From Candidatus Woesearchaeota archaeon (lineage in GTDB: Archaea > Nanobdellota > Nanobdellia > Nanobdellales > CAZNIQ01), in assembly GCA_964573185.1 (NCBI GenBank), contig CAZNIQ010000004.1:3679-35678 (forward strand): a DNA stretch of 32,000 bases. Direction: 5' to 3'. This document shows positions 885 through 32,000 of the stretch, one piece after another. A model generated the notes under the pieces. It had not been told where the DNA came from, did not search any database, and worked only from the letters and a program-made list of their open reading frames with translations. Position 1 is the first letter of the stretch; each line of letters starts with the position of its first letter. A program made the position numbers and the translations under genes.

Positions 885-1196
885 TTGTTTATGATATTTC
901 CTCAAACGAACTATATTTCTATTAATGCTACCGACTTTAGGAACGTTATAATTTCAAAAATTGTTCAAAAAATAAAAGGTAAAAAAGTAATTATTAATGG
1001 AGCAGGGCACATACCGGGATTGGAATTCTACTTAAGCCATTCAGTAGCTCTTGAGACAAAATTCGAATTTTATGATGCTCTATCAAAACTTCTGACGAAG
1101 AAAAACCTAGGAGAATTGTGGTACATTTATTATAGATTGGCAAAAATGGGAAATAAGATTTATTTTGCCGCAAAATACGATAAGATTAAGATTTAG
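885..1196 (+). CDS. hypothetical protein
   Basis: 103-aa ORF with a TTG start at 885 and an ATG at 891. The TAG stop overlaps the first base of tRNA-Pro. No family was recognised. Confidence 0.45.
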   Translation: MFMIFPQTNYISINATDFRNVIISKIVQKIKGKKVIINGAGHIPGLEFYLSHSVALETKFEFYDALSKLLTKKNLGELWYIYYRLAKMGNKIYFAAKYDKIKI

Positions 1197-1266
1197 GGGC
1201 CGTAGGCTAGCGGTAGGCTGCCGGGTTCGGGTCCCGGTGACCCGGGTTCGAATCCCGGCGGCCCCA
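1196..1266 (+). tRNA. tRNA-Pro (anticodon CGG)
   Basis: Hand-folded cloverleaf. Acceptor stem GGGGCCG/CGGCCCC. Anticodon stem CCGGG/CCCGG with loop TTCGGGT. T arm CCGGG-TTCGAAT-CCCGG. Discriminator A. No encoded CCA. Confidence 0.9.
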
Positions 1267-1955: not shown

Positions 1956-3032
1956 ATGGTACTATACATAGGCTTCTTAAAAGCAGTTTTACAAGATTCT
2001 CTTTCTTTCAAAAAATCTTATACTACAAAAAAATACAAGTTTTATTTGGAAGGAGAAAAGGATAATACATATTATTATAGAACCTATATTTTACCTAAAG
2101 TAAAAGGAAGTGTTGTGTCTTTTCCCATTCTTTTAGGTACTATAAAGCTTAAGAGAATAGAAAAAACAAATATTTTGATTGTAGAGATAAATCCTAAATC
2201 TGGTAGAGAAAAGGAAGATATAAAGAAAGCTTATTCCTCACTTGTAAAAAGTCTGCCAGGTATTTATTATATAAACAGTTATATTATTTTTTCAGAATTT
2301 TTCAAAAGATATTTGAAGGGAATACTTTCAGAGTACAATCTCTATATTCAAAAAATCGATTTTTTATACATTACTAAATACGGTAAAATAGGAGAATACA
2401 AAGGAAAAGAGTACGTGTCAAAATATGGAAGCGTTTTAGATTTAAAAGATATTAATGAACTTTATGAAGATTTAAAAAGAAAGGGTATTGAAAAAATAAT
2501 ACCGTATGTTTTTTCAATAACAGATCGTAAGTTTCCTATAGCAATATTTACTGTAAAAAGAAGCTTGATCGCCGTAACGGATTATGGATTAAGAAAATAT
2601 GAAGAGGTAATTGAACAGATTAAAAATAAGATTATTGAACTGGTTTTAAAAATAGAAAATATATCTAAATATAAAACAGGAAATCGAGTCAATAACAAGT
2701 TTGCAACTTCCAGTACAATAGATATAATTAAAGAAGAATACTATTTTGTTAGAAATTCCTATTTAAGCCTATTAAAAAAAGAAGAATTATTAAAGTTGGA
2801 AGAAGCTATATTGAGCAACCCTATTAGCTACTTCATTGCAGAGGATAAAGAAGGAAGGATTGATATAATATCACTAAGGAAAGAGGGAGATAACGTAGAA
2901 ATATATGTAACGCCATTTGATTTATTTAGAAATACAGTATCACCTGTTATAATAGATAAGTGGGAAGCTCTCAGATATATTACATACTCGGAAAATGATG
3001 ATCTCTTCAGAAATATTCAAAAAATTACTTGA
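1956..3032 (+). CDS. hypothetical protein (element cargo 1)
   Basis: 358-aa ORF with an ATG start. It overlaps the next ORF by 38 nt, which suggests an operon. No motif was recognised. Confidence 0.6.
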   Translation: MVLYIGFLKAVLQDSLSFKKSYTTKKYKFYLEGEKDNTYYYRTYILPKVKGSVVSFPILLGTIKLKRIEKTNILIVEINPKSGREKEDIKKAYSSLVKSLPGIYYINSYIIFSEFFKRYLKGILSEYNLYIQKIDFLYITKYGKIGEYKGKEYVSKYGSVLDLKDINELYEDLKRKGIEKIIPYVFSITDRKFPIAIFTVKRSLIAVTDYGLRKYEEVIEQIKNKIIELVLKIENISKYKTGNRVNNKFATSSTIDIIKEEYYFVRNSYLSLLKKEELLKLEEAILSNPISYFIAEDKEGRIDIISLRKEGDNVEIYVTPFDLFRNTVSPVIIDKWEALRYITYSENDDLFRNIQKIT

Positions 3033-3984
3033 AAATTATAAATACGAAATTATTGATTTTTATTTTTATAATTTAATATTTTTGGGTAGTCTGGCTTCAG
3101 CTATAATTGCAGGAAAATATTATCCTATTGAAATAGAGAAAAATGGAAAATACGATATTTTAGTAGAATTAGATGATAGAACTTTAGATTTTGAAATTAC
3201 AAGAATAATTAGCTCCTCCAACAGAGAGAAGTTAATAGATTATATAAACAAGAAAAAACGCGCTGCAGAAGAGATAAAGGCTACTCCTGTATTAGTAGTA
3301 TTGGTAGAAGAAGGTAACAAGGATCTTTTTGAAATAAAGAAAGTTTTAGATGATTCAAAACTTTCCTACATCATTGCAAAATTTAAAATAGAAAAGGATT
3401 ATGATATATTTATAGATTTTGAAACGTATACAGAAGATCTTATTATTAAAGATATTTTTGAATTTATTAAAAATATTCATAAAAGAGTAACCAAAACTCC
3501 CCCCGATACCCTTAGAGCGCTGTTATTAAAACTTCCCTTTATTCAAGATTTTGAATCAAAGCCAGATTACGAAATTCTAACCTTAGTTTCAATTTTTAAT
3601 CATCTTTATTATGTTATAAAAAGTTTTAGAGATATAAACATAGAGAGATATTTGTATTCCGATTTGCCAAAAGAGTTTGTTGGAATATTAAAAGAACATT
3701 TAATTAATAACCTAAGGAATTTAGATTTAGAAAGAAAGGACATTGAAAATTACATAGAGCTTTTTATTGAAAATTCAAAAATTCGAGAACGAATTGAAAG
3801 AATATTTAAATATCGTCTATATTATAGAATTCGGGATTTTTGTCGGGATCTTAAAAAGTTATCTGAAAATAAAATTAAGAAATGTTTAGAGAAGCTTATA
3901 GAAGTAAAAGAGTGCTACGAAAAAGATGATAATAAAAATAAAAGAAAATACAAAGAGTGTTTAAAGAGGATCCTTGGAATCTAA
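2995..3984 (+). CDS. hypothetical protein (element cargo 2)
   Basis: 329-aa ORF. The N-terminal segment KYDILVELDDRTLDFEITRI weakly resembles a PD-(D/E)xK core, but this is not demonstrable by eye. Confidence 0.6.
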   Translation: MMISSEIFKKLLENYKYEIIDFYFYNLIFLGSLASAIIAGKYYPIEIEKNGKYDILVELDDRTLDFEITRIISSSNREKLIDYINKKKRAAEEIKATPVLVVLVEEGNKDLFEIKKVLDDSKLSYIIAKFKIEKDYDIFIDFETYTEDLIIKDIFEFIKNIHKRVTKTPPDTLRALLLKLPFIQDFESKPDYEILTLVSIFNHLYYVIKSFRDINIERYLYSDLPKEFVGILKEHLINNLRNLDLERKDIENYIELFIENSKIRERIERIFKYRLYYRIRDFCRDLKKLSENKIKKCLEKLIEVKECYEKDDNKNKRKYKECLKRILGI

Positions 3985-4161: not shown

Positions 4162-4359
4162 TTAAATCTTGTCTATTCTATAGAAGAGATCCTTGATGTG
4201 GCTTTCAGAGAGATTCCGGGTTACCAACCAATAGTAGAATTCATCGAGAAGATCCAAATTTACAGAAACAAATAAATACTGACGAAATATTGAAAAGTTT
4301 GAAATTGTTTGAATGGGCTTGGGACCCGGTGACCCGGGTTCAAATCCCGGCGGCCCCAT
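4162..4359 (-). pseudogene. integrase fragment starting in attR, covering only the SAM-like/core-binding region, with the catalytic domain missing
   Basis: The ORF reads MGPPGFEPGSPGPKPIQ...FRQYLFVSVNLDLLDEFYYWLVTRNLSESHIKDLFYRIDKI*. Downstream to about 3990 only short, stop-interrupted frames remain (TFKFSKVKSKDEHL*, EVIKISKGEVK*, VIQEVAREKVGKIIKLYRKHIF...). Confidence 0.6.
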
Positions 4360-4364: not shown

Positions 4365-4772
4365 TTTGTTTTCTGTTCTTGTTATAGTAAAATAAATTAA
4401 TGTTAATGCAATATTTGAAACATTACTAACTTATCTTTATAACTTACATCTCCTAATTTTAATACTTCTTCTAATAACGTAATCGCTTATATAATAAATA
4501 TAACTAAAATTTCCATTAGGGTTCGCAGGTGCTTTAATTCACGTAATTTATTATCTCAATATACAATACTTCCATATAGAATTATAAGCGGGATAAAAGA
4601 AAAGAAAATATTTTGGAGAGTTGTATGTATTTTAAAAAAAGATTATGAAGAACGAAACAAACACAAGAACGAAATATATTATCATTGTATAGATAAAAAA
4701 TTTTGCAAATTCTAGTATTATTCCTTTTATTTTTGACTTATCCTTAATAAAGTTTAAAAACATATTATTTTA

Positions 4773-4828
4773 GGCCCGGTACCGCTATCGGGTTGAGACG
4801 TGATACCTGACTTCAAACCGGGCCGACA
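4773..4828 (+). ncRNA. H/ACA box guide sRNA candidate (single hairpin)
   Basis: 7-bp lower stem GGCCCGG/CCGGGCC. Pocket strands TACCGCTAT and ACTTCAAA. 5-bp upper stem CGGGT/ACCTG. K-loop with tandem G.A pairs (GA...GA) and a 5-nt loop. ACA lies 1 nt after the stem, about 16 nt from the top of the pocket. A TATA-like TTAATAAA lies about 26 nt upstream. Confidence 0.6.
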
Positions 4829-11399: not shown

Positions 11400-12104
11400 A
11401 TGAAGGCACTTATTCTTGCGGGTGGTTTTGGAAAAAGACTGAGACCTTTGACAGAAGAGAAACCAAAACCTTTAATTGAAATTAAAGGAAAACCTATTAT
11501 CCTCTGGCAAATAGAATGGTTAAAGAAGTACGGAATAAAAGAGGTAATCCTAGCTGTAGGGTACAAAAAGGAGAAATTCTTTGAGTATCTGGGATCTGGA
11601 AAAAGATTTGGTATAAAAATAGCATATGTTGTGGAGGAGGAACCTTTAGGAACTGCAGGAGCTATAAAGAATGCGGAACACTTATTAAAAAATGAAAAGT
11701 TCTTTTTTGTTCTAAATGGAGATATTTTGACAAATATTAATTTAATGAAAATGCTGGAGATCGCTGAAAAAACGGAATATTATGGATATATTGCCTTGGT
11801 TCCGATGAAAAGCCCATACGGAATTGTAGAGTTAAATGATAAAAATGAAATAATAAATTTTATTGAAAAACCGATATTAGAACATTTATTAATTAACGCT
11901 GGGATATACCTATTCAGACCGGAAGTTTTTGACTATTTACCAGAAAAAGGAGATATTGAAAAACAAGGCTTTCCGGAATTAGCTAAAGATAAAAAATTAT
12001 ATGGAATTGTTTTTAGAAACTACTTTTGGAAGAGTATAGATACTATAAAAGATAAAGAAGAAGTAGAAAAATTAGATATCAACAACGCACTCGGCCTTCC
12101 ATAA
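11400..12104 (+). CDS. sugar-1-phosphate nucleotidyltransferase (NDP-sugar pyrophosphorylase)
   Basis: The N-terminus KALILAGGFGKRLRPLTEEKPKPL is the signature G-rich loop. 234 aa. Confidence 0.85.
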   Translation: MKALILAGGFGKRLRPLTEEKPKPLIEIKGKPIILWQIEWLKKYGIKEVILAVGYKKEKFFEYLGSGKRFGIKIAYVVEEEPLGTAGAIKNAEHLLKNEKFFFVLNGDILTNINLMKMLEIAEKTEYYGYIALVPMKSPYGIVELNDKNEIINFIEKPILEHLLINAGIYLFRPEVFDYLPEKGDIEKQGFPELAKDKKLYGIVFRNYFWKSIDTIKDKEEVEKLDINNALGLP

Positions 12105-12542
12105 TCCTTCTTTTACTTTTTCTACATTCATCTCATTATAAGTTATAGCTTTCACTTCTTTTCCTCTCCCATGCTTTTCAGGATTATACTTTTCTCCTTT
12201 AATTTTAAATCTGCAGTACCAAACTCTTATCTTTTTATTATTTACCTTTTTCTCTTTCCTCCTCAAATTCTTTATTTTAACATCTCCTATAGCAAAATTA
12301 TCTATATAAAAAATATCTAGAATCTGCGTTAGAAAATCATATAGAGTTGAAATTATATCTTCTGATTCAAATTCAAATTCTTTTTCTTCTTTGAGTTCCA
12401 CTTTCGAAACATCGTACATAATGTTCATTATTCCTAAAGCCAAAGCTTCAAAAGCTCTTTTTATAGTATTTCCATAGCCAACCACTTTAATATCTGCTGT
12501 ATGTTCTTTATACTCCCAATATCTTAATCCTTGCTTTCCCAT
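12072..12542 (-). CDS. archease (tRNA ligase / tRNA methyltransferase accessory protein)
   Basis: The N-terminus YKEHTADIKVVGYGNTIKRAFEALAL and the C-terminus KAITYNEMNVEK...AECVVDI match the archease family pattern. A lysine-rich insertion is present. Confidence 0.8.
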   Translation of the reverse strand: MGKQGLRYWEYKEHTADIKVVGYGNTIKRAFEALALGIMNIMYDVSKVELKEEKEFEFESEDIISTLYDFLTQILDIFYIDNFAIGDVKIKNLRRKEKKVNNKKIRVWYCRFKIKGEKYNPEKHGRGKEVKAITYNEMNVEKVKEGLWKAECVVDI

Positions 12543-13072: not shown

Positions 13073-13464
13073 AGGCTTATGGGCATCCTTTAATAAAAGC
13101 AACACACAAATCTACGTTTGAAATTACAAAAGATAACTATTTAACTCCAAGAGGGGACTGTATTATAGGGATAAAAGCCTCTCACTCAGTAAAGGATTTA
13201 CCAATAGAGCTTAAAGAACACTTAAAGAAAGGCGGCAAAATAGAAATAATATTAAAGGTAGATGATTTAGAAGATAAGATAATTGCGTATGGACACCCTA
13301 ATCTAATTTTAACAAATGAAAGATCTATTGTTGTTAGAAGAAGTACTTTCATAGATGATAGAACTTTAGCTATAAGGGCTAATAAAGCTGCTAAAGACAT
13401 TAGAAGAGATCTTATTGAAGAATTGAAAAAAGAGAAGGAACTAGAATTTATTATTATATGGTAA
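13054..13464 (+). CDS. DUF371 family protein
   Basis: The segment KAYGHPLIKATHKSTFEITKDNYLTPRGDCIIGI matches my recollection of the DUF371 signature (GHxN..A.H.tT.E.Tkd..Lt..GDCI). Confidence 0.6.
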   Translation: MPRFVIKAYGHPLIKATHKSTFEITKDNYLTPRGDCIIGIKASHSVKDLPIELKEHLKKGGKIEIILKVDDLEDKIIAYGHPNLILTNERSIVVRRSTFIDDRTLAIRANKAAKDIRRDLIEELKKEKELEFIIIW

Positions 13465-13516
13465 TCAGCCCCTAGGTTCTTCATCAATCTTCAGGGCTCA
13501 AGACCGTCATCATTTT
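13462..13516 (-). ncRNA. C/D box sRNA (2'-O-methylation guide)
   Basis: Minus strand: C box AUGAUGA, guide CGGUCUUGAGCC, D' CUGA, AGAU, C' UGAUGA, guide AGAACCUAGGGG, D CUGA. Confidence 0.85.
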
Positions 13517-13573
13517 TGTACCCCGGGACAGAGATCGGTGATCACAAATCCCACCGACGTCGCGGCCCGGGGC
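13517..13573 (-). ncRNA. H/ACA box guide sRNA candidate, fused upstream of the C/D sRNA
   Basis: Minus strand: 7-bp lower stem CCCCGGG/CCCGGGG. Pocket strands CCGCGACG and UCUCUGU. 6-bp upper stem UCGGUG/CACCGA. K-loop GGAUUUGUGAU with tandem G.A pairs. ACA at 13519-13517 lies 1 nt after the stem. The C box begins 3 nt later. Confidence 0.6.
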
Positions 13574-13597
13574 TTTTATATATATTTATATAAAAGT

Positions 13598-16324: not shown

Positions 16325-16923
16325 ATTCGAATTTCTTCTGCGAACCCAGAATTTATTAACATTTCGGCTACATCTTTTGGTAACGTAACTATCTCTTCTG
16401 GTTTATAAGGCCCATAGGTTTGTAGATCTGTACCGACGAACTCGGATATCTCCTTTACAATTCTAACAACTTTTACATTTCTCTCTTTTGGCAAACCAGA
16501 TGCTTTTAGTATTTTATTCAATTCCTTTCCTAATTCTTCTAATTTTGGTTTTTCTCCAGAAAGAACTGATTCTAAAACATATTTTCTAAAAGCTAATAAA
16601 GTATTAAAAAGTATTTTATATAATACTTTTTCCTCAATAGTTAATTTATCAATATCTTCGCTTTCAGATTTTAATCTTGAAGTTATCAATGCTAATTCTA
16701 ATATCTTTTTTTCCCTTAAATCATAAATATCTCTTATCAATAATTTCAAGTTTTCAAGTTCTATTCTAAGTTTTTTCAGCTCTTCCGTATCTATTTCCTT
16801 TACTTTCTCAATAATTCTGTTTAGTCTACTTATTTGATCTGCTACCTTTCTGTAAAATAGCTCATCCAATTTTTGGATACTTCTTAGATTTTTCTCCTTT
16901 TGATAAATTGAGAATAAGTTCAT
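16321..16923 (-). CDS. GINS complex subunit (Gins51-like)
   Basis: The C-terminal domain VRIVKEISEFVGTDLQTYGPYKPEEIVTLPKDVAEMLINSGFAEEI matches the Gins51 pattern. The gene lies next to the primase gene, as in other archaea. Confidence 0.65.
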   Translation of the reverse strand: MNLFSIYQKEKNLRSIQKLDELFYRKVADQISRLNRIIEKVKEIDTEELKKLRIELENLKLLIRDIYDLREKKILELALITSRLKSESEDIDKLTIEEKVLYKILFNTLLAFRKYVLESVLSGEKPKLEELGKELNKILKASGLPKERNVKVVRIVKEISEFVGTDLQTYGPYKPEEIVTLPKDVAEMLINSGFAEEIRI

Positions 16924-18266
16924 AATTTAAGTTTACCTTTTTCCTTTAAATATTTTTTATATGGATATTGTAGAGGATTTTTTATCAATTGGCAAATTTC
17001 ATCCGGTTCGCACACTCCCATATCTTTATAATAATTTTCGTTATTACAATTAGGAGGAAGATATTGCTTTTTCTTTTCTTCCCAAGTTTTTTTATGCCAC
17101 TCCCATTGATACTCTATGTATCTCTCCCTTAAAGGCTCAGGATTCCTTTCGTTCCATTCTTCTAAAAGTTGTTTAATCTCGTCCCATTCCCATCCAACAT
17201 GCTTCAAGAAGTTTATGAGAATAAATACAGCACGTTTTCTACCGTCTTCTAATCCTTGTAAGATCTTCTTAATACATGGCGGAAAATATTTTTCATCAAA
17301 TTTCTTTGGAAACTTTATTTTCTTCTTATCCTTTTGTATTTCTTCAATTATTTCTTCTCTTTCTCTTTCAGCAATAAACTCTCTCGTTAATTGTTCTAAC
17401 TTCTGTTTTTCTAATTTTTGCAATTCTTCCCATGCTAAAGCAGAATAGATTAATTCTGTAATCTCTTCTTTAACATTTTCAGTATCTAAAAATTTTGTTC
17501 CATCCCACTCATAATTATCTAAAGAAGCTTCTGATGGTTCAAAATACTTGATATCCTCTTCTCTTAAAGGAATTGAAAGCAAATTTGTTTTTTCATTTAA
17601 GGAAAAAGGCATACGGAAAAGGTGTCTAACTGAGATTAAAATGGTATCAATTGAAACTAACTTAAATACATCAAAAGAGTCTAAATTATATTTTTTAATT
17701 AATTCTTCTTCAGAAAAGTTCCTTAAAAGTTTTTTCTCTAAAGGTTCCTTAATTTTGTAAGCTATAAAAGAAGCTAAAGTTCTTGCTAAGTCTGGAAATA
17801 AATCTTTAGTTTTCTTTCCATCAAGTTCTTTAGGAAAAGCTTCCCATGGAATTGCTATATGAAAACCTTTACCTCCAGAAAACTTTATGCTATATGATTC
17901 AACGTTATAATCTTTTAATACTTTAAGAATTTCAAATAGTGCAAGTCTAGATAATTCCAAATCTTTTCCATCAATATCTATAATAAAATCCCAGCCTATT
18001 CTTAATTCATTTAACTCTTTTTTCTTCATTTTTGGAGATAACAACATTGGATCCTTCCATCTTTCCTCCGAAATATGAAAAGATATTGCTTTTTGTTTAA
18101 TCAACTCTAATATATCTCCTTCATTTTGGAGAATAAATGGTCTTTTTCCAAAAGCCCCAGATTCATATCTAAAAGTAAATTCTCTATTCTGAGCTACTCT
18201 AACCATCTCAGAAAGTATTTCTCTATTTTTTTGATAAAACTTTAAGAGCTTAAGCCTAATTCCCAT
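16920..18266 (-). CDS. DNA primase: PriS catalytic domain fused to a PriL-type Fe-S C-terminal domain
   Basis: The N-terminal part has the AEP motifs DFIIDIDGKD and SGGKGFHIAIPW. The C-terminal part has FPPCIKKIL...GRKRAVFILINFLKHVGW plus the cysteines PPNC, GVC and EIC, which could be Fe-S ligands. Confidence 0.8.
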   Translation of the reverse strand: MGIRLKLLKFYQKNREILSEMVRVAQNREFTFRYESGAFGKRPFILQNEGDILELIKQKAISFHISEERWKDPMLLSPKMKKKELNELRIGWDFIIDIDGKDLELSRLALFEILKVLKDYNVESYSIKFSGGKGFHIAIPWEAFPKELDGKKTKDLFPDLARTLASFIAYKIKEPLEKKLLRNFSEEELIKKYNLDSFDVFKLVSIDTILISVRHLFRMPFSLNEKTNLLSIPLREEDIKYFEPSEASLDNYEWDGTKFLDTENVKEEITELIYSALAWEELQKLEKQKLEQLTREFIAEREREEIIEEIQKDKKKIKFPKKFDEKYFPPCIKKILQGLEDGRKRAVFILINFLKHVGWEWDEIKQLLEEWNERNPEPLRERYIEYQWEWHKKTWEEKKKQYLPPNCNNENYYKDMGVCEPDEICQLIKNPLQYPYKKYLKEKGKLKL

Positions 18267-19719: not shown

Positions 19720-19935
19720 ATGCCTAAAGGGGTTAGAGGTAGATTAAAGAGAAAAGCTTGTATTAAATGTAAAGCAGTGGTTCCTTATGATACAAAAGTT
19801 TGTCCTGTTTGTGGTTCAACAGAATTTTCAGAGGATTTCGTAGGTTTAGTAGTAATTGTGGATACAGAAAAATCTCTAATCGCAAAAAAGTTAGGTATTA
19901 AAAAACCATTTACATATGCTCTAAAGGTAAGATGA
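19720..19935 (+). CDS. spt4: transcription elongation factor Spt4 (RpoE'')
   Basis: Zinc ribbon CIKCKAVV...CPVCGS followed by GLVVIVDTEKSLIAKKLGI...YALKV. Confidence 0.85.
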   Translation: MPKGVRGRLKRKACIKCKAVVPYDTKVCPVCGSTEFSEDFVGLVVIVDTEKSLIAKKLGIKKPFTYALKVR

Positions 19936-20744
19936 ATTATATAAGAGTTACAGATTTAGTAGATTATTTAATCTGTCCTAGAAAGGTTTATTTCAAATTG
20001 GTATTAGGGTTAGAAGAGGAAAAGAAAGAAGAGATGTTGAAAGGTGAAATAATACATAAGATCTTTGAGGAATTTAATGATAAAGAAGAAGAAATTGTTT
20101 ATGAGATTCTAGAGCCGGTACCTTATGATAAAATTTACAAACTGTATTATGACGCTTTCCGAGAGACAGTTGATTCGGTTTTAAATTCTTATGAAGAGGA
20201 ACTAAAAGAGTTTAATTTAAGTAAAGAAGAATTAAAGTTAGAAATTTTAGATCATTTCAAATATGAGATTGAGGATAGGGCAAAGAACGTTTATCAAACC
20301 ATGAAAGCTTTAGATCTATATGGTATTGAATTATGGGATGCTTTAGAACCTAAGATAAAGTCTGAAGTAGAATTAATTTCGGATGATTTAAAACTTGTAG
20401 GAAGAATAGATAGGATAGAGTTTTACAAGGATATAGCAATTCCCGTTGAAATTAAAACTGGAAATCGTATAGGTTTTATTCATAAATTTCAATTGCATGC
20501 TTACGCTTTATTGATTAGAGATAATTTCTCTTATTATGACATCCCATTAGGTTACGTTTATTATACAAAATTGAGAAAAAGAAAAGAGGTTAGGTTTTCA
20601 GAAAAAATATTCAAGATGGTTATAGAAGTAAGAAACAAGATATGGGATATTATTGAAGAACAGAAGATGCCAGAAGAAAGAAATGAAAAGCTCTGCTCAA
20701 AATGTCCATTTAGAGAACAATGCTTGAAATTAAAGGTAAAGTAG
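19932..20744 (+). CDS. Cas4/DUF83-like PD-(D/E)xK nuclease with Fe-S cysteines
   Basis: There is an N-terminal Cys (LICPRKVYF). The core reads GRIDRIE...PVEIKTG...QLHAYALL. The C-terminal cluster is CSKCPFREQC. No CRISPR array is nearby. Confidence 0.7.
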   Translation: MNYIRVTDLVDYLICPRKVYFKLVLGLEEEKKEEMLKGEIIHKIFEEFNDKEEEIVYEILEPVPYDKIYKLYYDAFRETVDSVLNSYEEELKEFNLSKEELKLEILDHFKYEIEDRAKNVYQTMKALDLYGIELWDALEPKIKSEVELISDDLKLVGRIDRIEFYKDIAIPVEIKTGNRIGFIHKFQLHAYALLIRDNFSYYDIPLGYVYYTKLRKRKEVRFSEKIFKMVIEVRNKIWDIIEEQKMPEERNEKLCSKCPFREQCLKLKVK

Positions 20745-27631: not shown

Positions 27632-29974
27632 ATGCAAGAGTTAAAACTAGAAGAAGTTTTCGAATCTTTACATTCTTCTCCCCAAGGATTATCCGAAGAA
27701 GAGGCTCAAAGGAGATTAAAGATTTATGGCGAAAACACCGTTGAAAGAGAAAAACACCAACTATTAAAATTTTTAATTAGAGTTATTTTAAATCCAGTTA
27801 ATGTAATGATTTTATCTGCAGCTCTTCTATCTTTCTTAATAGGACATATCCATGATGCTTATTTTATTTTATTTCTCTTTATTTTAAACGTTTTCATAAT
27901 CTTTTATCAAGAATTTAAAAGTGAAAAGTACTTGGAGGAATTAAGAAAGAAATTGGAAAGACATGTTGAAGTTTTAAGAGATGGTAAATGGAAATGGATT
28001 CCCGCAAGATATATTGTACCGGGAGATATTGTAAGATTGAATGCAGGTGAAACTGTTCCTGCTGATATAAAAATAATAGAAGCAGAAAATCTTTTAGTTG
28101 ACGAATCTGCAATAACTGGTGAATCTTTACCTGTAGAAAAAAGTGTTGGTGATGTTCTATATGCTCCAAGCATAATTAAGAGAGGTAAATGTATTGGTAT
28201 AGTCGTTGCTACCGGAATTCATGCAAAATACGGTCAATTAATAAATTTAGTTCAAACAACGAAAAGCAAAAGCAATTTAGAAAAAACTATATTGAAAATA
28301 GGTATTTTCTTAATGATTTTGGCTTTTACACTTATCATTACATCTTCAATAAAATTATTTCTTGAAGGTAAAAGTATTTACGATATCTTACTTTTTGATT
28401 TAGCCTTATTAGTTTCTGCTATTCCAACAGCCTTACCCGCAGTTGTCTCTTCGATTCTTTTAGTCTCTTCTTATAATTTAGCTAAAAGAAATATTTTAGT
28501 TAGAAGGTTATCCTCTGTATTTGACATAGCTCAAATGAACATGCTTTGTACCGATAAAACAGGTACATTAACTGAAAATAAGATACGATTGGATAAAATT
28601 GTTCCAGTAAATGCTACAGAAGAAGAAGTTTTGAAATACGCTTTTCTAGCTTCCGATCCTTCTTCGGGGGATCCAATAGATACCGCAATAGCGGAAAAAG
28701 TAAAAGAAAAAAGAATTGAAATAAAGGAAAAAGTAATAAAGTTCGAACCATATGATTCCGTTAGAAAATATTCTTATGCTATTTTAGAAGGAAATGTTGT
28801 TGTTAAGAAAGGGAGTCCTGAAAGGTTATTAGAAGAAATAAAAGCTCCAAAAGAATACTACGATATTTTAGATAAGCTTTATGAAGAAGGTTATAGAGTA
28901 CTTGCTGTAATTAAAAATAACGAACTTTTAGGATTCTTAGCTTTCTATGATCCACCTAGAAAGGATGCCCCTATATTTATTAAAGAGCTCAAGGATTTAG
29001 GATTAAAAATTAAGATGCTTACTGGAGATTCTAAAAAGATTGCAATAAAAGTTGCAAAAGAAGTTGGAATAGAAGGACCTGCAATAAGTAGAAAGGAAAT
29101 GTATAGAATAGCTACAAAACAACATTTTGATTTTATAGCAGAAAGATATAATATTTTTGCAGAAATTTATCCTGAAGATAAATACAGAATCGTTGAAAGT
29201 TTAAAGAAAAGGTACTATATAGGAGTTACAGGAGACGGTGTAAATGATATAGGTGCTTTCAAAGTTGCAAACGTTGGGATAGCAGTATATAACGCTGTAC
29301 AAGCTGCTAAAGAATTTGCAGATTTAATTCTAACAGCCCCAGGTCTAAAACAGTTGGTTGATGCAATAAAGGAAGCTAGAAGAGGTTTCAAGAGAATAGA
29401 AAATTATGTGATTTACAGAATAGCGGAAAATATTAGATTTCCGTTCTTTGTAACATTATCTTTGTTTTTATATGATGTAAAGCTTTCTCCAATTTTTATG
29501 CTAATGTTAACAATCCTAAATGACATTCCAATAATTGCAGTTGCTTTTGACAATGTTAATTATTCAAGAAAACCTTGCAAATTTAATTTAAGAACAATTT
29601 TAATAATTTCATTAATATTAGGTTTTATAGGAGTTTTAAATAGTTTGCTCTACTTATTCTTAATTAAAAGATACTTGCCTCTTGAGCTATTGGAAGCTTT
29701 TCTATTTCTAAAATTGCTACTTACGGGACACTTTCTGTTATTTGTTGTTAGAACTAGAGAAGAATTTTGGTTTCAAAATCCACCGAAAGGAGTTCTTCTA
29801 ATATCTACCATATCAACACAGATCATTGGAACTTTAATAATCTTGTTTCTAATTTTAGAATATTACAAAGCAAACGTAGTTTATTTGTTATTAGTTCTAT
29901 TCACATGGATCTATGCTTTCTTATGGATGAATATAACAGATTTTATTAAGGTTTTGATCTTTAGAAAAATGTGA
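27632..29974 (+). CDS. P-type cation-transporting ATPase (plasma-membrane H+-ATPase-like, P3/MJ1226-type)
   Basis: Motifs present: TGES, CTDKTGTLTENK, MLTGDS and GDGVNDIGAFKVANVGIAV. The sequence has about 10 hydrophobic segments and a PMA-like N-terminus (EEAQRRLKIYGEN). Confidence 0.85.
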   Translation: MQELKLEEVFESLHSSPQGLSEEEAQRRLKIYGENTVEREKHQLLKFLIRVILNPVNVMILSAALLSFLIGHIHDAYFILFLFILNVFIIFYQEFKSEKYLEELRKKLERHVEVLRDGKWKWIPARYIVPGDIVRLNAGETVPADIKIIEAENLLVDESAITGESLPVEKSVGDVLYAPSIIKRGKCIGIVVATGIHAKYGQLINLVQTTKSKSNLEKTILKIGIFLMILAFTLIITSSIKLFLEGKSIYDILLFDLALLVSAIPTALPAVVSSILLVSSYNLAKRNILVRRLSSVFDIAQMNMLCTDKTGTLTENKIRLDKIVPVNATEEEVLKYAFLASDPSSGDPIDTAIAEKVKEKRIEIKEKVIKFEPYDSVRKYSYAILEGNVVVKKGSPERLLEEIKAPKEYYDILDKLYEEGYRVLAVIKNNELLGFLAFYDPPRKDAPIFIKELKDLGLKIKMLTGDSKKIAIKVAKEVGIEGPAISRKEMYRIATKQHFDFIAERYNIFAEIYPEDKYRIVESLKKRYYIGVTGDGVNDIGAFKVANVGIAVYNAVQAAKEFADLILTAPGLKQLVDAIKEARRGFKRIENYVIYRIAENIRFPFFVTLSLFLYDVKLSPIFMLMLTILNDIPIIAVAFDNVNYSRKPCKFNLRTILIISLILGFIGVLNSLLYLFLIKRYLPLELLEAFLFLKLLLTGHFLLFVVRTREEFWFQNPPKGVLLISTISTQIIGTLIILFLILEYYKANVVYLLLVLFTWIYAFLWMNITDFIKVLIFRKM

Positions 29975-31296
29975 AAATAAATGTAGCGGTAATATTTCCA
30001 AACAAGAAGCATGGAGGAATTTATTCACTCGGACCTATGTATGTTGAAACTTACTTTAATTTAGATAAAAGATTTGAGGCAAAAAGATATTTTTTAGATG
30101 ATTTACCAAAAGGAAGACATCATATTTACATTTTTTCCATATCTTATGAATTGGATCTTCCAAAAGTACCAAAGATTTTAAAGAAACTTGGAATACCTCT
30201 GAATAAAGAAAAGAGAGAAGAATTAGTTATTGCTGGGGGACCTGCCGTTAGAATAAACCCTTATTATTTGAAAGATATTATTGATTTTGAAATCTTAGGT
30301 GAAGCAGAAGCAACAATTCCATATTTATATGATCCTCTATATAATTATTTTAAACATAAAAATAAGGGAAAGTTATTTGAAGAGATAAAAGATATTAACG
30401 GTATTTTTATTCCAGAGATAAAAGAAAAGGAAGAACACCCTTATATAGAAAATTTAGACGAAAGTATACATCCTATTTACCAACCCTTACCTAAAAAATT
30501 AACGAGGAAATATGTGTTTGGTAATGCTTTTATTTTAGAAGTTGCAAGATCTTGTCCTTTTAATTGCGCATTCTGTGACGTTAAATTTCTGTACAAGAAA
30601 TTTAGATTTAGATCTTTAGAAAAACTAAAGGAAATAATAAATTTAGGTTTAAAAATTAATGGGAAAAAGAAAATAGCATTGATTTCTCCTACACTTGTCC
30701 ATCCTAACCTATTTGATCTACTACATTATATTTTAGAAGAAAAGAAAACAAAATTTATGTTACCATCTTTAAGAGCTGAATTATTATTAAATGATAAGAT
30801 GTTAGAATTTATTAAGAGATCTGGTCAGAGAACTATTACATTAGCTCCAGAAACTGGATCTGAAGAATTAAGATTTCAATTGAATAAAAGAATTCCTGAT
30901 TGGGTCTTCTTTGAAATAGCTAAAAAAGCTAAAAATTACGGTATTAAAGAATTGAAGTTCTACTTTATTGTTGGGTTGCCGAATCAAGATATGGATGACG
31001 CTTATAGAATAGTGGAGTTTATTAAGAAAATAAAGGAATTATTCAAAGGGAAGATTTATGTTTCTGTAAATCCTTTTGTTCCAAAGAGAGGAAGCCTCTT
31101 AGAAAATGCTCCTTTCGATGAGAAGAAATCTAGAAAGATGATACAAATATTAAAGAAAGAATTTCGGAAATTAAAAATAAGGTATAAATTTAAGAGTATT
31201 AAAACTGCAAAGAAAGAATATTTAATTCAATGGGAACGCCGCCGCGGGGATTTGAACCCCGGACCTGCCGGTATCAACCGCCCCCACCCCGGCTAA
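29971..31296 (+). CDS. radical SAM protein (B12-binding-like N-terminus, COG1032-like)
   Basis: CxxxCxxC motif ARSCPFNCAFCDV. 441 aa. The last 20 or so codons are the antisense of the tRNA-Asn 3' exon and GC clamp. Confidence 0.7.
   Translation: MKINVAVIFPNKKHGGIYSLGPMYVETYFNLDKRFEAKRYFLDDLPKGRHHIYIFSISYELDLPKVPKILKKLGIPLNKEKREELVIAGGPAVRINPYYLKDIIDFEILGEAEATIPYLYDPLYNYFKHKNKGKLFEEIKDINGIFIPEIKEKEEHPYIENLDESIHPIYQPLPKKLTRKYVFGNAFILEVARSCPFNCAFCDVKFLYKKFRFRSLEKLKEIINLGLKINGKKKIALISPTLVHPNLFDLLHYILEEKKTKFMLPSLRAELLLNDKMLEFIKRSGQRTITLAPETGSEELRFQLNKRIPDWVFFEIAKKAKNYGIKELKFYFIVGLPNQDMDDAYRIVEFIKKIKELFKGKIYVSVNPFVPKRGSLLENAPFDEKKSRKMIQILKKEFRKLKIRYKFKSIKTAKKEYLIQWERRRGDLNPGPAGINRPHPG
31278..31293. 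repeat. GC clamp arm (inverted repeat partner of 31848-31863)
   Basis: On the plus strand, CCGCCCCCACCCCGGC here is the perfect 16/16 reverse complement of GCCGGGGTGGGGGCGG at 31848-31863. Confidence 0.9.
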
Positions 31297-31325
31297 AAAT
31301 TTAAATCTACAAAATAATTATTAAA

Positions 31326-31943
31326 ATGTTTTGGTATATTATTGGGCTTCTTGCTGGAGATGGCTATTTATATGATAGGAAATATCAAATAGGTTGGGTT
31401 TTAAATAAGAAAGAGAACGAAATTCAGAACAGAATAATAAATTTTCTCAAGGTATATCAAAGACTCGGATTTGTGAGGAAAATACATGTTATAGAGAGAA
31501 AAGATAATAGCGTTGAGATTAAAATTTATAGTAAGAGAATGTTTAACTTATTTAAGAAGTTTTGTGAAGGTAAAGGGAGATATAAAAGGATTTTAATATA
31601 TCCCAGCGAACTTGTAAAGAAAATTGAGCTGTTCTCTGGATTATTTGACGCTGAAGGTTCAGTAGTTGTATATAGAAATTCTCCCAGAGCATTTTTCGTA
31701 ACGGCATCAGAATACATTAGAGCTACTTTTGAGAAGCTATTACAAGATTTAAATATTAGATACTACATTTACAACGATAAAAGTTGTTTTAGATTTAAAT
31801 TAGCAATTACAGATTTGAGAAAAATTAATCATATGAGCATTAAGTTAGCCGGGGTGGGGGCGGTAACAGCTTCGGCCCTTTCGGTCGGCCGCTCTACCGG
31901 GCTGAGCTACGGCGGCTTTTTCAATATAACATGTTCAAAATAA
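31326..31943 (+). CDS. LAGLIDADG homing endonuclease (double-motif, monomeric type)
   Basis: Motif 1 is YIIGLLAGDGYL (D12). Motif 2 is LFSGLFDAEGSV (E110). The core is about 174 aa. The last 31 or so codons run antisense through the tRNA-Asn 5' exon. An A/T-rich TATA-like stretch at 31295-31306 lies 20-30 nt upstream of the ATG. Confidence 0.8.
   Translation: MFWYIIGLLAGDGYLYDRKYQIGWVLNKKENEIQNRIINFLKVYQRLGFVRKIHVIERKDNSVEIKIYSKRMFNLFKKFCEGKGRYKRILIYPSELVKKIELFSGLFDAEGSVVVYRNSPRAFFVTASEYIRATFEKLLQDLNIRYYIYNDKSCFRFKLAITDLRKINHMSIKLAGVGAVTASALSVGRSTGLSYGGFFNITCSK
31848..31863. repeat. GC clamp arm (inverted repeat partner of 31278-31293)
   Basis: See the partner arm. This arm lies immediately 3' of tRNA nucleotide 37 on the minus strand. 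Confidence 0.9.
31871..31885 (-). other. tRNA-Asn intron 1 (ACCGAAAGGGCCGAA), non-canonical position 30/31, with a BHB motif
   Basis: A 3-nt bulge, 4-bp helix, 3-nt bulge structure can be drawn. Cleavage after the second nucleotide of each bulge gives exactly the G30-G31 junction needed for a perfect anticodon stem. Confidence 0.6.
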
Positions 31944-31951
31944 TTTTAAAA
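31937..31951 (-). promoter_or_regulatory. TATA-like tract (TTTTAAAATTATTTT) for the tRNA-Asn 5' part
   Basis: It spans -35 to -21 relative to the first G of the tRNA (31916). Confidence 0.4.
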
Positions 31952-31963
31952 TTAATTGAAACC

Positions 31964-32000
31964 CGGGCCGGCCGGGATTTGAACCCGGGACCTCCGGGTT
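31964..32000 (-). tRNA. tRNA, 3' portion only (truncated by the window edge), identity unknown
   Basis: The minus strand reads ...AGGUC CCGGG UUCAAAU CCCGG CCGGCCC G: variable region, T arm, acceptor 3' strand and discriminator G. Confidence 0.6.

Follow-up and report, generated by a model that had tools for sequence, protein, structure and literature searches.

A reversed homing-endonuclease element of the rRNA-intron type inside two tRNA genes of a Nanoarchaeota-group archaeon

Anatomy of the interrupted tRNA-Asn(GUU) gene and its tRNA-Lys(UUU) neighbour

A stretch of 32,000 nt from a Candidatus Woesearchaeota archaeon (contig CAZNIQ010000004.1), which we refer to in its full length as the window, carries near its end a minus-strand tRNA-Asn(GUU) gene that is broken into three exons by a mini-intron at position 30/31 and by a large insert at position 37/38, and the latter contains, on the opposite strand, a gene for a LAGLIDADG homing endonuclease (Table 1). 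The exons are contiguous in one locus, lie on the same strand without overlap and abut exactly at 37/38. Joined in silico, they yield a 74-nt tRNA with an entirely Watson-Crick-paired cloverleaf, which ARAGORN calls as tRNA-Asn(gtt), and their G+C content is 73% as compared to 30.5% for the window. Neither ARAGORN nor Rfam made a call on the unspliced locus.

Table 1. Features of the interrupted tRNA-Asn(GUU) gene and of the neighbouring tRNA-Lys(UUU) gene. Coordinates are those of the window unless a contig is named; 'sister' denotes the sister lineage (contig L013).
Feature	Coordinates	Strand	Remarks
tRNA-Asn(GUU) exon 1	31886..31916	-	31 nt, Sprinzl 1-30; 31/31 identical in sister
Mini-intron ACCGAAAGGGCCGAA at 30/31	31871..31885	-	15 nt; 15/15 identical in sister
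tRNA-Asn exon 2	31864..31870	-	7 nt, G31 to A37, with anticodon GUU
Intervening sequence at 37/38	31273..31863	-	591 nt, AT-rich
Clamp 5' arm CCGCCCCCACCCCGGC	31848..31863	-	Start of insert; outer helix of the bulge-helix-bulge motif
T5 tract	31820..31824	-	24 nt past 5' clamp; candidate end of a 5' half-transcript
LAGLIDADG homing endonuclease reading frame	31326..31943	+	205 amino acids, intact, two motifs
Conserved block ATACCAAAACATTTTAATAATTATTTT	31311..31337	-	27 nt, 100% identical in sister despite dead endonuclease
AT-rich spacer, 3' clamp to endonuclease ATG	31294..31325		32 nt; candidate divergent promoter
Clamp 3' arm GCCGGGGTGGGGGCGG	31278..31293	-	Near insert end, followed by UUGAU
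Linker UUGAU	31273..31277	-	5/5 identical in sister
tRNA-Asn exon 3	31237..31272	-	36 nt, A38 to G73; weak partial Rfam tRNA match
tRNA-Lys(UUU) 3' exon	31964..32000	-	Cut by window end
Full tRNA-Lys(UUU) gene	L001 11366-10639	-	654-nt insert at 30/31

The large insert is closed by a perfect 16-bp GC helix, the clamp, for which we calculated -18 kcal/mol at 85 °C by itself. In a repeat search the perfect complementarity reached 20 nt (31277-31296 with 31845-31864, 548 nt apart), and just one further perfect 14-mer inverted pair with a spacing of 50-1500 nt exists in the 32-kb window (27490/28907). The junctions at 37/38 form a relaxed bulge-helix-bulge (BHB) motif with the bulges UA/C and AU/A (the slash marking the splice point), flanked by an 18-bp outer helix and, on the inside, by the 5-bp anticodon stem. 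Its central helix consists of one Watson-Crick pair, two wobbles and one mismatch (C-G, UxU, G.U, U.G), with the UUG of the linker and the last G of the clamp making up the 3' strand and the AU of the linker falling into the 3' bulge. The BHB of the mini-intron is of the strict hBHBh' form, with four Watson-Crick central pairs, 3-nt bulges and an outer hairpin CC-GAAA-GG, and the layout of this intron (A, short helix, GCCG, AA) resembles that of the ends of the tRNA-Lys insert described below (A, clamp, GGCG, AG).

The endonuclease open reading frame (ORF) occupies nearly the whole insert, and its final ~26 codons traverse the clamp, exons 2 and 1 in antisense, and the 5' flank of the tRNA. 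The product matches Pfam LAGLIDADG_3 (E = 2.4e-9, 37.7 bits against a curated cut-off of 22.5) through the motifs GLLAGDG, with D12, and GLFDAEG, with E110. I-DmoI entries are its best PDB matches; both motifs align, and D12 and E110 fall on the two catalytic acidic positions. A single-sequence AlphaFold model with a predicted local distance difference test score (pLDDT) of 47.9 was too weak for a fold search, and its order of secondary-structure elements fits alpha-beta-beta-alpha-beta-beta-alpha. Indexed homolog searches with the Asn and Lys endonucleases returned only self-matches, and a single-protein search of species-representative genomes gave no match. An exhaustive HMMER search with the Asn endonuclease found one 80%-identical fragment of 54 amino acids and otherwise relatives at ~22-37% identity. 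The distant relatives P0023, P0015 and P0005 are located inside large- or small-subunit rRNA genes. Since I-DmoI is the best match and these distant relatives sit in rRNA genes, the Asn protein, as judged by sequence, belongs with the homing endonucleases of archaeal rRNA introns.

An element of this archaeal rRNA-intron type, bearing a homing endonuclease, accounts for the size of the insert, its AT-richness and the presence of an opposite-strand ORF. The endonuclease runs antisense to its host gene in each of the three tRNA inserts, those of Asn, of Lys and of Asn in the sister lineage introduced below, and sense in the four rRNA contexts examined (4/4). The antisense protein is thus not translatable from the excised intron, and it needs a promoter of its own.

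These results bear out most of what a preliminary description of the locus had claimed from the letters of the DNA. It had assembled the same three minus-strand pieces into a 74-nt tRNA-Asn(GUU) and had placed 591 nt between nucleotides 37 and 38, with the right coordinates and sequences; the 16-bp GC clamp that it reported is real, and extends further than it had seen; the relaxed BHB, with the same weak centre, agrees with the junction as we wrote it out; and the likeness that it saw to the GC-rich leader/trailer duplexes of split tRNAs holds as well. The opposite-strand coding that it noticed in the interior is likewise present, but the identity of the protein, a LAGLIDADG homing endonuclease by its Pfam match, had escaped it.

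The neighbouring tRNA-Lys(UUU) gene is cut by the end of the window, and we followed it on L001, a longer contig of the same organism that runs past this end and differs at 3 positions in 10.7 kb. Spliced, it gives a 74-nt tRNA with a fully paired cloverleaf that ARAGORN calls as tRNA-Lys(ttt). Its insert has a strict BHB at 30/31 with four Watson-Crick central pairs, a 14-bp GC clamp and an antisense LAGLIDADG gene (Pfam match) that is unrelated to the Asn endonuclease (22% identity). The Lys endonuclease is frameshifted, the same truncated N-terminal ORF of 104 amino acids having been called in two independent assemblies. By its sequence, tRNA-Lys(UUU) is a second instance of the tRNA-Asn design: in both genes a BHB forms at the junctions, and removal of the intervening sequences gives a canonical 74-nt tRNA according to ARAGORN.

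Several observations touch on these genes. The ORFs 29971-31296 (+) and 31326-31943 (+) both continue through antisense tRNA exons before reaching a stop, which gives them GC-rich tails (...RRRGDLNPGPAGINRPHPG and ...AGVGAVTASALSVGRSTGLSYGGF..., respectively) that are kept in public gene calls; such tails are usable for spotting hidden RNA exons. Another distant LAGLIDADG relative, P0019 (L012 573-1208 (+), Logan SRR12113407), has on either side an intron-containing tRNA gene of the opposite strand. We considered it as a tRNA-intron endonuclease, its C-terminus reading through a T-arm, and rejected it as free-standing between the two tRNA genes; in the upstream tRNA, the 3' strand of the acceptor stem appears to be interrupted by a 20-nt hairpin (CCAAG/AATGAGTTTTTGACTCATTG/GCA). 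Finally, the sister genome encodes a DNA polymerase D large subunit with an intein containing a LAGLIDADG_3 domain (L017 1673-6646 (-), GCA_054017035.1), and the lineage thus harbours several kinds of homing elements.

Conservation and decay in a sister lineage

A syntenic locus comprising the neighbouring ATPase gene, the radical SAM gene and tRNA-Asn is present in a sister lineage, in the NCBI metagenome-assembled genome (MAG) GCA_054017035.1 and in a second sample. The remoter radical SAM orthologs, at ~40% identity, lack both synteny and a tRNA in the vicinity, which limits the comparison to two lineages; an exact search with the neighbouring ATPase gave no match. Between the window and the sister contig, the flanking radical SAM DNA is 78% identical, and the interior of the tRNA-Asn insert is 80% identical and interrupted by frame-breaking indels of 32, 3, 14 and 1 nt. 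The sister endonuclease has decayed through an in-frame stop, frameshifts and a deletion. The exons (74/74), the mini-intron (15/15) and the linker (5/5) are unchanged. The clamp has two changes, G to A at position 14 of the 5' arm and C to T at position 3 of the 3' arm, and both affect the same base pair, turning G-C into A-U.

At the substitution rate of the interior, the probability of two or fewer changes in the 52 structural intron positions is P = 0.001, and that of no change in the tRNA-Asn exons is P ~9e-8. Because the exons, mini-intron and linker stand unchanged while the interior diverges and the endonuclease decays, the pattern of substitutions speaks for a live tRNA-Asn gene and rules out a dead one; the compensatory G-C to A-U change indicates, on the same kind of evidence, that the clamp pairs as RNA. 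Such a combination, an endonuclease in decay next to splicing signals that the host needs and keeps, is what a homing element should show once it is fixed. Three states are present among the insertions: with an intact endonuclease (Asn of the window), with a decayed one (Lys, and Asn of the sister) and as a remnant-like hairpin of 15 nt (the Asn mini-intron).

Synteny between the two lineages stops exactly at the 5' side of tRNA-Asn (from window 31917 and L013 3290 onward), beyond which one lineage has tRNA-Lys and a D-aminoacyl-tRNA deacylase gene and the other has Ham1-like and threonyl-tRNA synthetase genes. The interrupted tRNA gene thus lies at a rearrangement breakpoint.

One precursor or two transcripts

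On balance, and with moderate confidence, we favour the reading of the locus as a mobile-intron-type element with an antisense I-DmoI-like endonuclease in a live tRNA gene, which is, somewhat more likely than not, expressed as two annealing RNAs. We infer the following course for splicing, homing, promoter use and transcript topology. The endonuclease gene is bracketed by the 16-20-bp G+C-rich inverted repeat, which, when paired in RNA, would close the insert and present the relaxed BHB; EndA would cut in both bulges at 37/38, RtcB, aided by Archease, would join the exons, and the mini-intron would leave by the same EndA/RtcB route. An Archease gene is present in the window (12072-12542 (-)), which fits an active tRNA-splicing pathway; no EndA gene lies in the window. 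The endonuclease would be made from its own promoter beside the 3' clamp, and in the past it would have carried the element into further tRNA-Asn genes by cutting those that were insert-free (homing). The AT-rich spacer would also fire toward the 3' exon of the tRNA, and a 5' part (exons 1 and 2 plus clamp) and a 3' part (21-nt GC leader plus exon 3) would then, for the most part, be separate RNAs annealing through the clamp. The product would be an adjacent split tRNA like the tRNA-Asp of Aeropyrum pernix, and a cis-spliced read-through precursor could coexist with it.

The features of the spacer are consistent with divergent transcription. On the plus strand, TAAAAATTTAAAT adjoins the clamp as a candidate promoter element of the endonuclease gene, and on the minus strand, TTTAATAA (31325-31318) lies 32 nt upstream of the first G of the clamp as a candidate for the 3' tRNA part. 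The corresponding box, TTTA[AT]4, starts 32 nt ahead of the 3' clamp in Asn and 31 nt ahead of it in both sister Asn and Lys; at real tRNA 5' ends of this organism it starts at -30 to -37, and the chance rate of a box in that range is 4-5% of window positions and 13-15% in equally AT-rich DNA. Its distance is kept to the clamp, not to the ATG of the endonuclease. The 27-nt block that is identical in the two lineages spans this minus-strand box together with the first four codons of the endonuclease. Furthermore, the predicted leader of 21 nt (16 nt of clamp and 5 nt of linker) is in line with the 20-25 nt in A. pernix, and the antisense orientation of the endonuclease fits a divergent promoter next to the 3' clamp. 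In silico, the two half-RNAs anneal into the same junction (ΔΔG of about -26 kcal/mol at 85 °C), and the dimer is predicted to be stable at 85-95 °C.

Runs of T point in the same direction. Core genes have 1.4 sense-strand runs of at least five T per kb, with none in 7 of 12 genes, and this avoidance suggests that such runs terminate transcription. The tRNA strands of the three inserts carry 3.4, 4.6 and 14.1 such runs per kb; in the sister insert there are eight, three of them T6, and in the Asn insert of the window there are two T5 runs, about as many as its base composition predicts. Taken together, these sequence features make a two-transcript route, possibly beside read-through, somewhat probable.

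The preliminary description had left open whether the locus yields one precursor or two halves, and the placement of the TATA-like box at 31-32 nt, as well as the dense oligo-T, now tilts the matter mildly toward two. The A/T-rich TATA-like stretch that it had pointed out before the 3' clamp is indeed there (31318-31325). The T5 tract that it had singled out after the 5' clamp exists as well, but it is not conserved as a terminator, the sister sequence reading TTTTC. It had further suggested that the locus may be an intermediate between an intron-containing and a split tRNA gene, which we treat as a hypothesis.

The strongest rival is a strictly cis-spliced giant intron: the 680-nt locus would be transcribed from the upstream tRNA promoter, closed by the clamp within a single molecule and processed by EndA and RtcB as rRNA introns are, and the box before the 3' clamp would be due to chance or form part of the endonuclease promoter region. 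We consider this quite possible, if rather less than probable. The exons are contiguous, on one strand and in the right order, a mini-precursor folds into the expected junction, and the relatives of the endonuclease reside in rRNA introns, which are known to be cis-spliced. TATA-like boxes occupy 13-15% of positions in comparably AT-rich DNA, and the tRNA strand of the window insert has only two T5 runs, close to the compositional expectation. Against strict cis-splicing, the distance from box to clamp is the same in two unrelated inserts, the 27-nt block over the box is kept where the endonuclease is dead, and the sister insert is dense in T runs of a kind that core genes avoid. Moreover, a gene on the opposite strand inside an intron implies colliding transcription, and the sole tRNA 'intron' longer than 100 nt and without a C/D box small RNA that has been examined proved to be two transcripts (PMC3218864).

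Several points weigh against the reading that we favour. The 27-nt block overlaps the start of the endonuclease, and an earlier constraint on coding or expression could explain its conservation; promoter-like boxes are common in DNA of 75-90% AT, and the spacer would be AT-rich anyway if it were the endonuclease promoter. The sister lineage does not share the T5 tract behind the 5' clamp, and with eight runs in a 990-nt ORF and five in the ATPase gene, T5 is not an absolute terminator. To our knowledge, all studied endonuclease-bearing BHB introns, those of rRNA genes, are cis-spliced. The central BHB helix at 37/38 is weak and the structure prediction for the endonuclease is poor (pLDDT 48). 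As to homing, an insert-free allele was not found, an exact 28-mer of the 3' exon occurring only on the same contig in a scan of JGI metagenomes, and both known lineages carry the tRNA-Asn insert.

The remaining rivals fare much worse. An insertion-inactivated tRNA-Asn pseudogene, with another tRNA-Asn gene serving the cell, would explain why ARAGORN and Rfam do not call the locus and why the central BHB helix is weak, and yet we strongly disfavour it as very improbable: exons, mini-intron and linker are identical in lineages whose neighbouring DNA differs by ~20% (P ~9e-8 for the exons alone), the clamp has undergone a compensatory double change, tRNA-Lys(UUU) next door has the same design, and the 3' exon is present on no other contig in the JGI metagenomes. 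More improbable still is that a plasmid or virus fragment entered the tRNA gene by att-type integration, following the model for the tRNA-Thr of Caldiarchaeum. Integration often targets tRNA genes, which are hot spots for it, a model with a recombinase element is in the literature (PMC3293823), and an orphan tRNA-Pro 3' fragment resembling an att duplication lies in the window at 4317-4358; the tRNA-Asn insert, however, has no integrase or recombinase, its sole ORF with a family match being the endonuclease, no tRNA segment is duplicated, and the exons abut at 37/38 with a BHB. A self-splicing group I or group II intron with a homing endonuclease is hardly conceivable, for even though archaeal group I introns with LAGLIDADG genes exist (PMC6125680), as do such introns in bacterial tRNA anticodon loops, the junctions here form a BHB, Rfam group I/II signatures had no match in 31100-32000 even at E <= 10, and the opposite-strand ORF, which fills the ~75% AT interior, leaves no room for a ribozyme core.

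Host genome, known systems and significance

The host appears to be affiliated with the Nanoarchaeota. The Cbf5 encoded in the window has 50-54% identity to its closest species representatives, all of them MAGs of DPANN 'Woesearchaeota', and the next-closest radical SAM ortholog that bears a source name is labelled Nanoarchaeota. A primase with fused small and large subunits (PriS-PriL) is encoded at 16920-18266 (-); this fusion is a trait of Nanoarchaeota, and its presence fits such an affinity. The G+C content of RNA is linked to growth temperature, and the GC-rich RNAs of this AT-rich genome suggest that the host is a thermophile or hyperthermophile.

Elsewhere in the window, a Cas4/PD-(D/E)XK nuclease gene lies at 19932-20744 (+). 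An orphan 3' portion of a tRNA-Pro (4317-4358 (+)), with the anticodon loop CTTGGGA (= UGG), the T-arm and the 3' strand of the acceptor stem and without a 5' part, is almost a copy of the 3' part of tRNA-Pro(CGG), an intact gene located 3 kb upstream (1196-1266 (+)). We also considered whether this piece might be a genuine half of a split tRNA, and decided against it because a GC leader is missing and its sequence repeats the 3' part of a nearby tRNA-Pro. The two ORFs between the tRNA-Pro copies (1956-3032 and 2995-3984) match no Pfam family and contain unusually many sense-strand T5 runs, and the region looks like an integrated element with an att duplication, in which we saw no integrase. 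By eye, a C/D box small RNA of canonical archaeal form can be recognised at ~13461-13516 (-) (ATGATGA, 12 nt, CTGA, AGAT, TGATGA, 12 nt, CTGA), for which there was no Rfam call at the gathering threshold. Finally, two GC-rich hairpin islands in AT-rich intergenic DNA, 4771-4822 (+) (GGCCCGG...CCGGGCC) and 13521-13576 (+) (CCCCGGG...CCCGGGG, then TTTT), are probably small structured RNAs.

The preliminary description had gone too far in stating that no tRNA gene with such an architecture has been described, given that the tRNA-Asp(GUC) of A. pernix is a precedent (PMC3218864). Its halves are adjacent on the same strand, the G/C stem measures 14 bp, and a promoter is located inside, 20-25 nt ahead of the 3' exon; its two transcripts were demonstrated by northern blot and reverse transcription PCR, and the 2011 paper speaks of 'a true evolutionary intermediate' (PMC3218864). 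As in our locus, two same-strand exon blocks within one locus are joined at 37/38 through a BHB followed by a G/C stem. Unlike in A. pernix, where the spacer is 121 nt long and gene-free, the spacers here are 591 and 654 nt long and contain an endonuclease gene; and while two transcripts have been shown there, here the sequence suggests them.

The second relative is the archaeal rRNA intron. Endonuclease-bearing BHB introns are well known in rRNA genes (PMC4496867), and those of the Desulfurococcus mobilis 23S gene (I-DmoI) and of Thermoproteales 16S genes (PMC4496867) share with the inserts the two-motif LAGLIDADG protein, the length of ~600 nt, the BHB at the junctions and a long closing helix. 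The three states described above also parallel the 16S rRNA introns, which Jay & Inskeep divide into endonuclease-bearing, remnant and small BHB hairpin classes (PMC4496867), a series of decay from intact endonuclease through remnant to hairpin. The present element differs in that its host is a tRNA gene, its endonuclease is antisense and its ORF exits the intron through the 5' exon of the tRNA.

The split tRNA genes of Nanoarchaeum equitans, reportedly described by Randau et al. in 2005, and those of Staphylothermus likewise have a GC-rich trailer and leader, form a BHB for EndA and are interrupted at 37/38 and 30/31. Here, the complementary GC-rich trailer and leader that form the BHB pair over 16-20 bp in Asn and 14 bp in Lys, and the host, like N. 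equitans, is a DPANN archaeon of the Nanoarchaeota group with a hyperthermophile-like RNA composition. Tens of kb separate the halves in N. equitans and Staphylothermus, and no mobile element is known to intervene; the parts of our tRNA-Asn, in contrast, do not occupy separate loci but are adjacent on one strand, 591 nt apart, and the element is present. tRNA-Lys(CUU) is split at 30/31 in both N. equitans and Staphylothermus (PMC3218864), the isoacceptor differing from the Lys(UUU) found here. Six tRNAs are joined in trans in N. equitans and none in its relative Nst1, which indicates that tRNA splitting is recent.

Ordinary archaeal tRNA introns, multiple and non-canonical ones included, reported to be 11-129 nt long with a median of 15 nt (PMC3218864), also form a BHB, restore the cloverleaf upon removal and are known at 37/38 and 30/31. 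The mini-intron is a textbook case, its length being equal to the median, whereas the two large inserts are ~4.6 and 5 times the 129-nt maximum and code for protein. With bacterial tRNA group I introns (PMC3984707) the inserts share a homing endonuclease gene inside an anticodon-loop intron; those introns, however, are self-splicing ribozymes, and a BHB needs protein enzymes.

The locus is thus a variant that combines known kinds, namely BHB intron, homing element and adjacent split tRNA, and calls for no new category. Full-text searches and the reviews that we read, together with a 2026 preprint on 208 Nanobdellota genomes, yielded no account of an archaeal tRNA BHB intron that contains a homing endonuclease, and the term 'homing endonuclease' is absent from the Yoshihisa 2014 review. 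Published models of tRNA disruption invoke viral or mobile elements that were not identified, or a recombinase element (PMC3293823), and the earlier evidence for mobile elements consisted of synteny breaks (PMC3218864) and of a recombinase element near a tRNA fragment (PMC3293823).

As a further and tentative proposition, which we consider possible but unlikely, the inserts may be self-contained gene-splitting cassettes with a GC clamp, a T-rich stop for the upstream part of the tRNA and a divergent promoter serving the endonuclease in one direction and the downstream tRNA part in the other. If so, insertion would instantly turn an intact tRNA gene into a working adjacent split gene; later rearrangement at the element would scatter the halves and produce the N. 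equitans state, including Lys at 30/31; and once the interior was deleted, what stayed behind would be an ordinary mini-intron such as the one at 30/31 of tRNA-Asn. Such cassettes would be the long-sought agent by which archaeal tRNA genes were split and short tRNA introns spread.

Standard tRNA finders miss genes of this kind, and 'missing' tRNAs in DPANN genomes may therefore hide likewise. Since 2005 it has been debated whether archaeal tRNA introns and split tRNA genes derive from ancient gene pieces or from a late disruption through mobile elements, and no disrupting element had been caught in the act before. In this Nanoarchaeota-group archaeon, a homing-endonuclease element of the rRNA-intron type, inserted in reverse, lies inside two evidently functional tRNA genes, which still hold the suspected agent. 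It sits at 37/38 and 30/31, the positions at which N. equitans tRNAs are split, and carries the same kind of GC-rich clamp. The value of the element lies in being a plausible and testable candidate for what gave rise to split tRNA genes and, possibly, to short tRNA introns.

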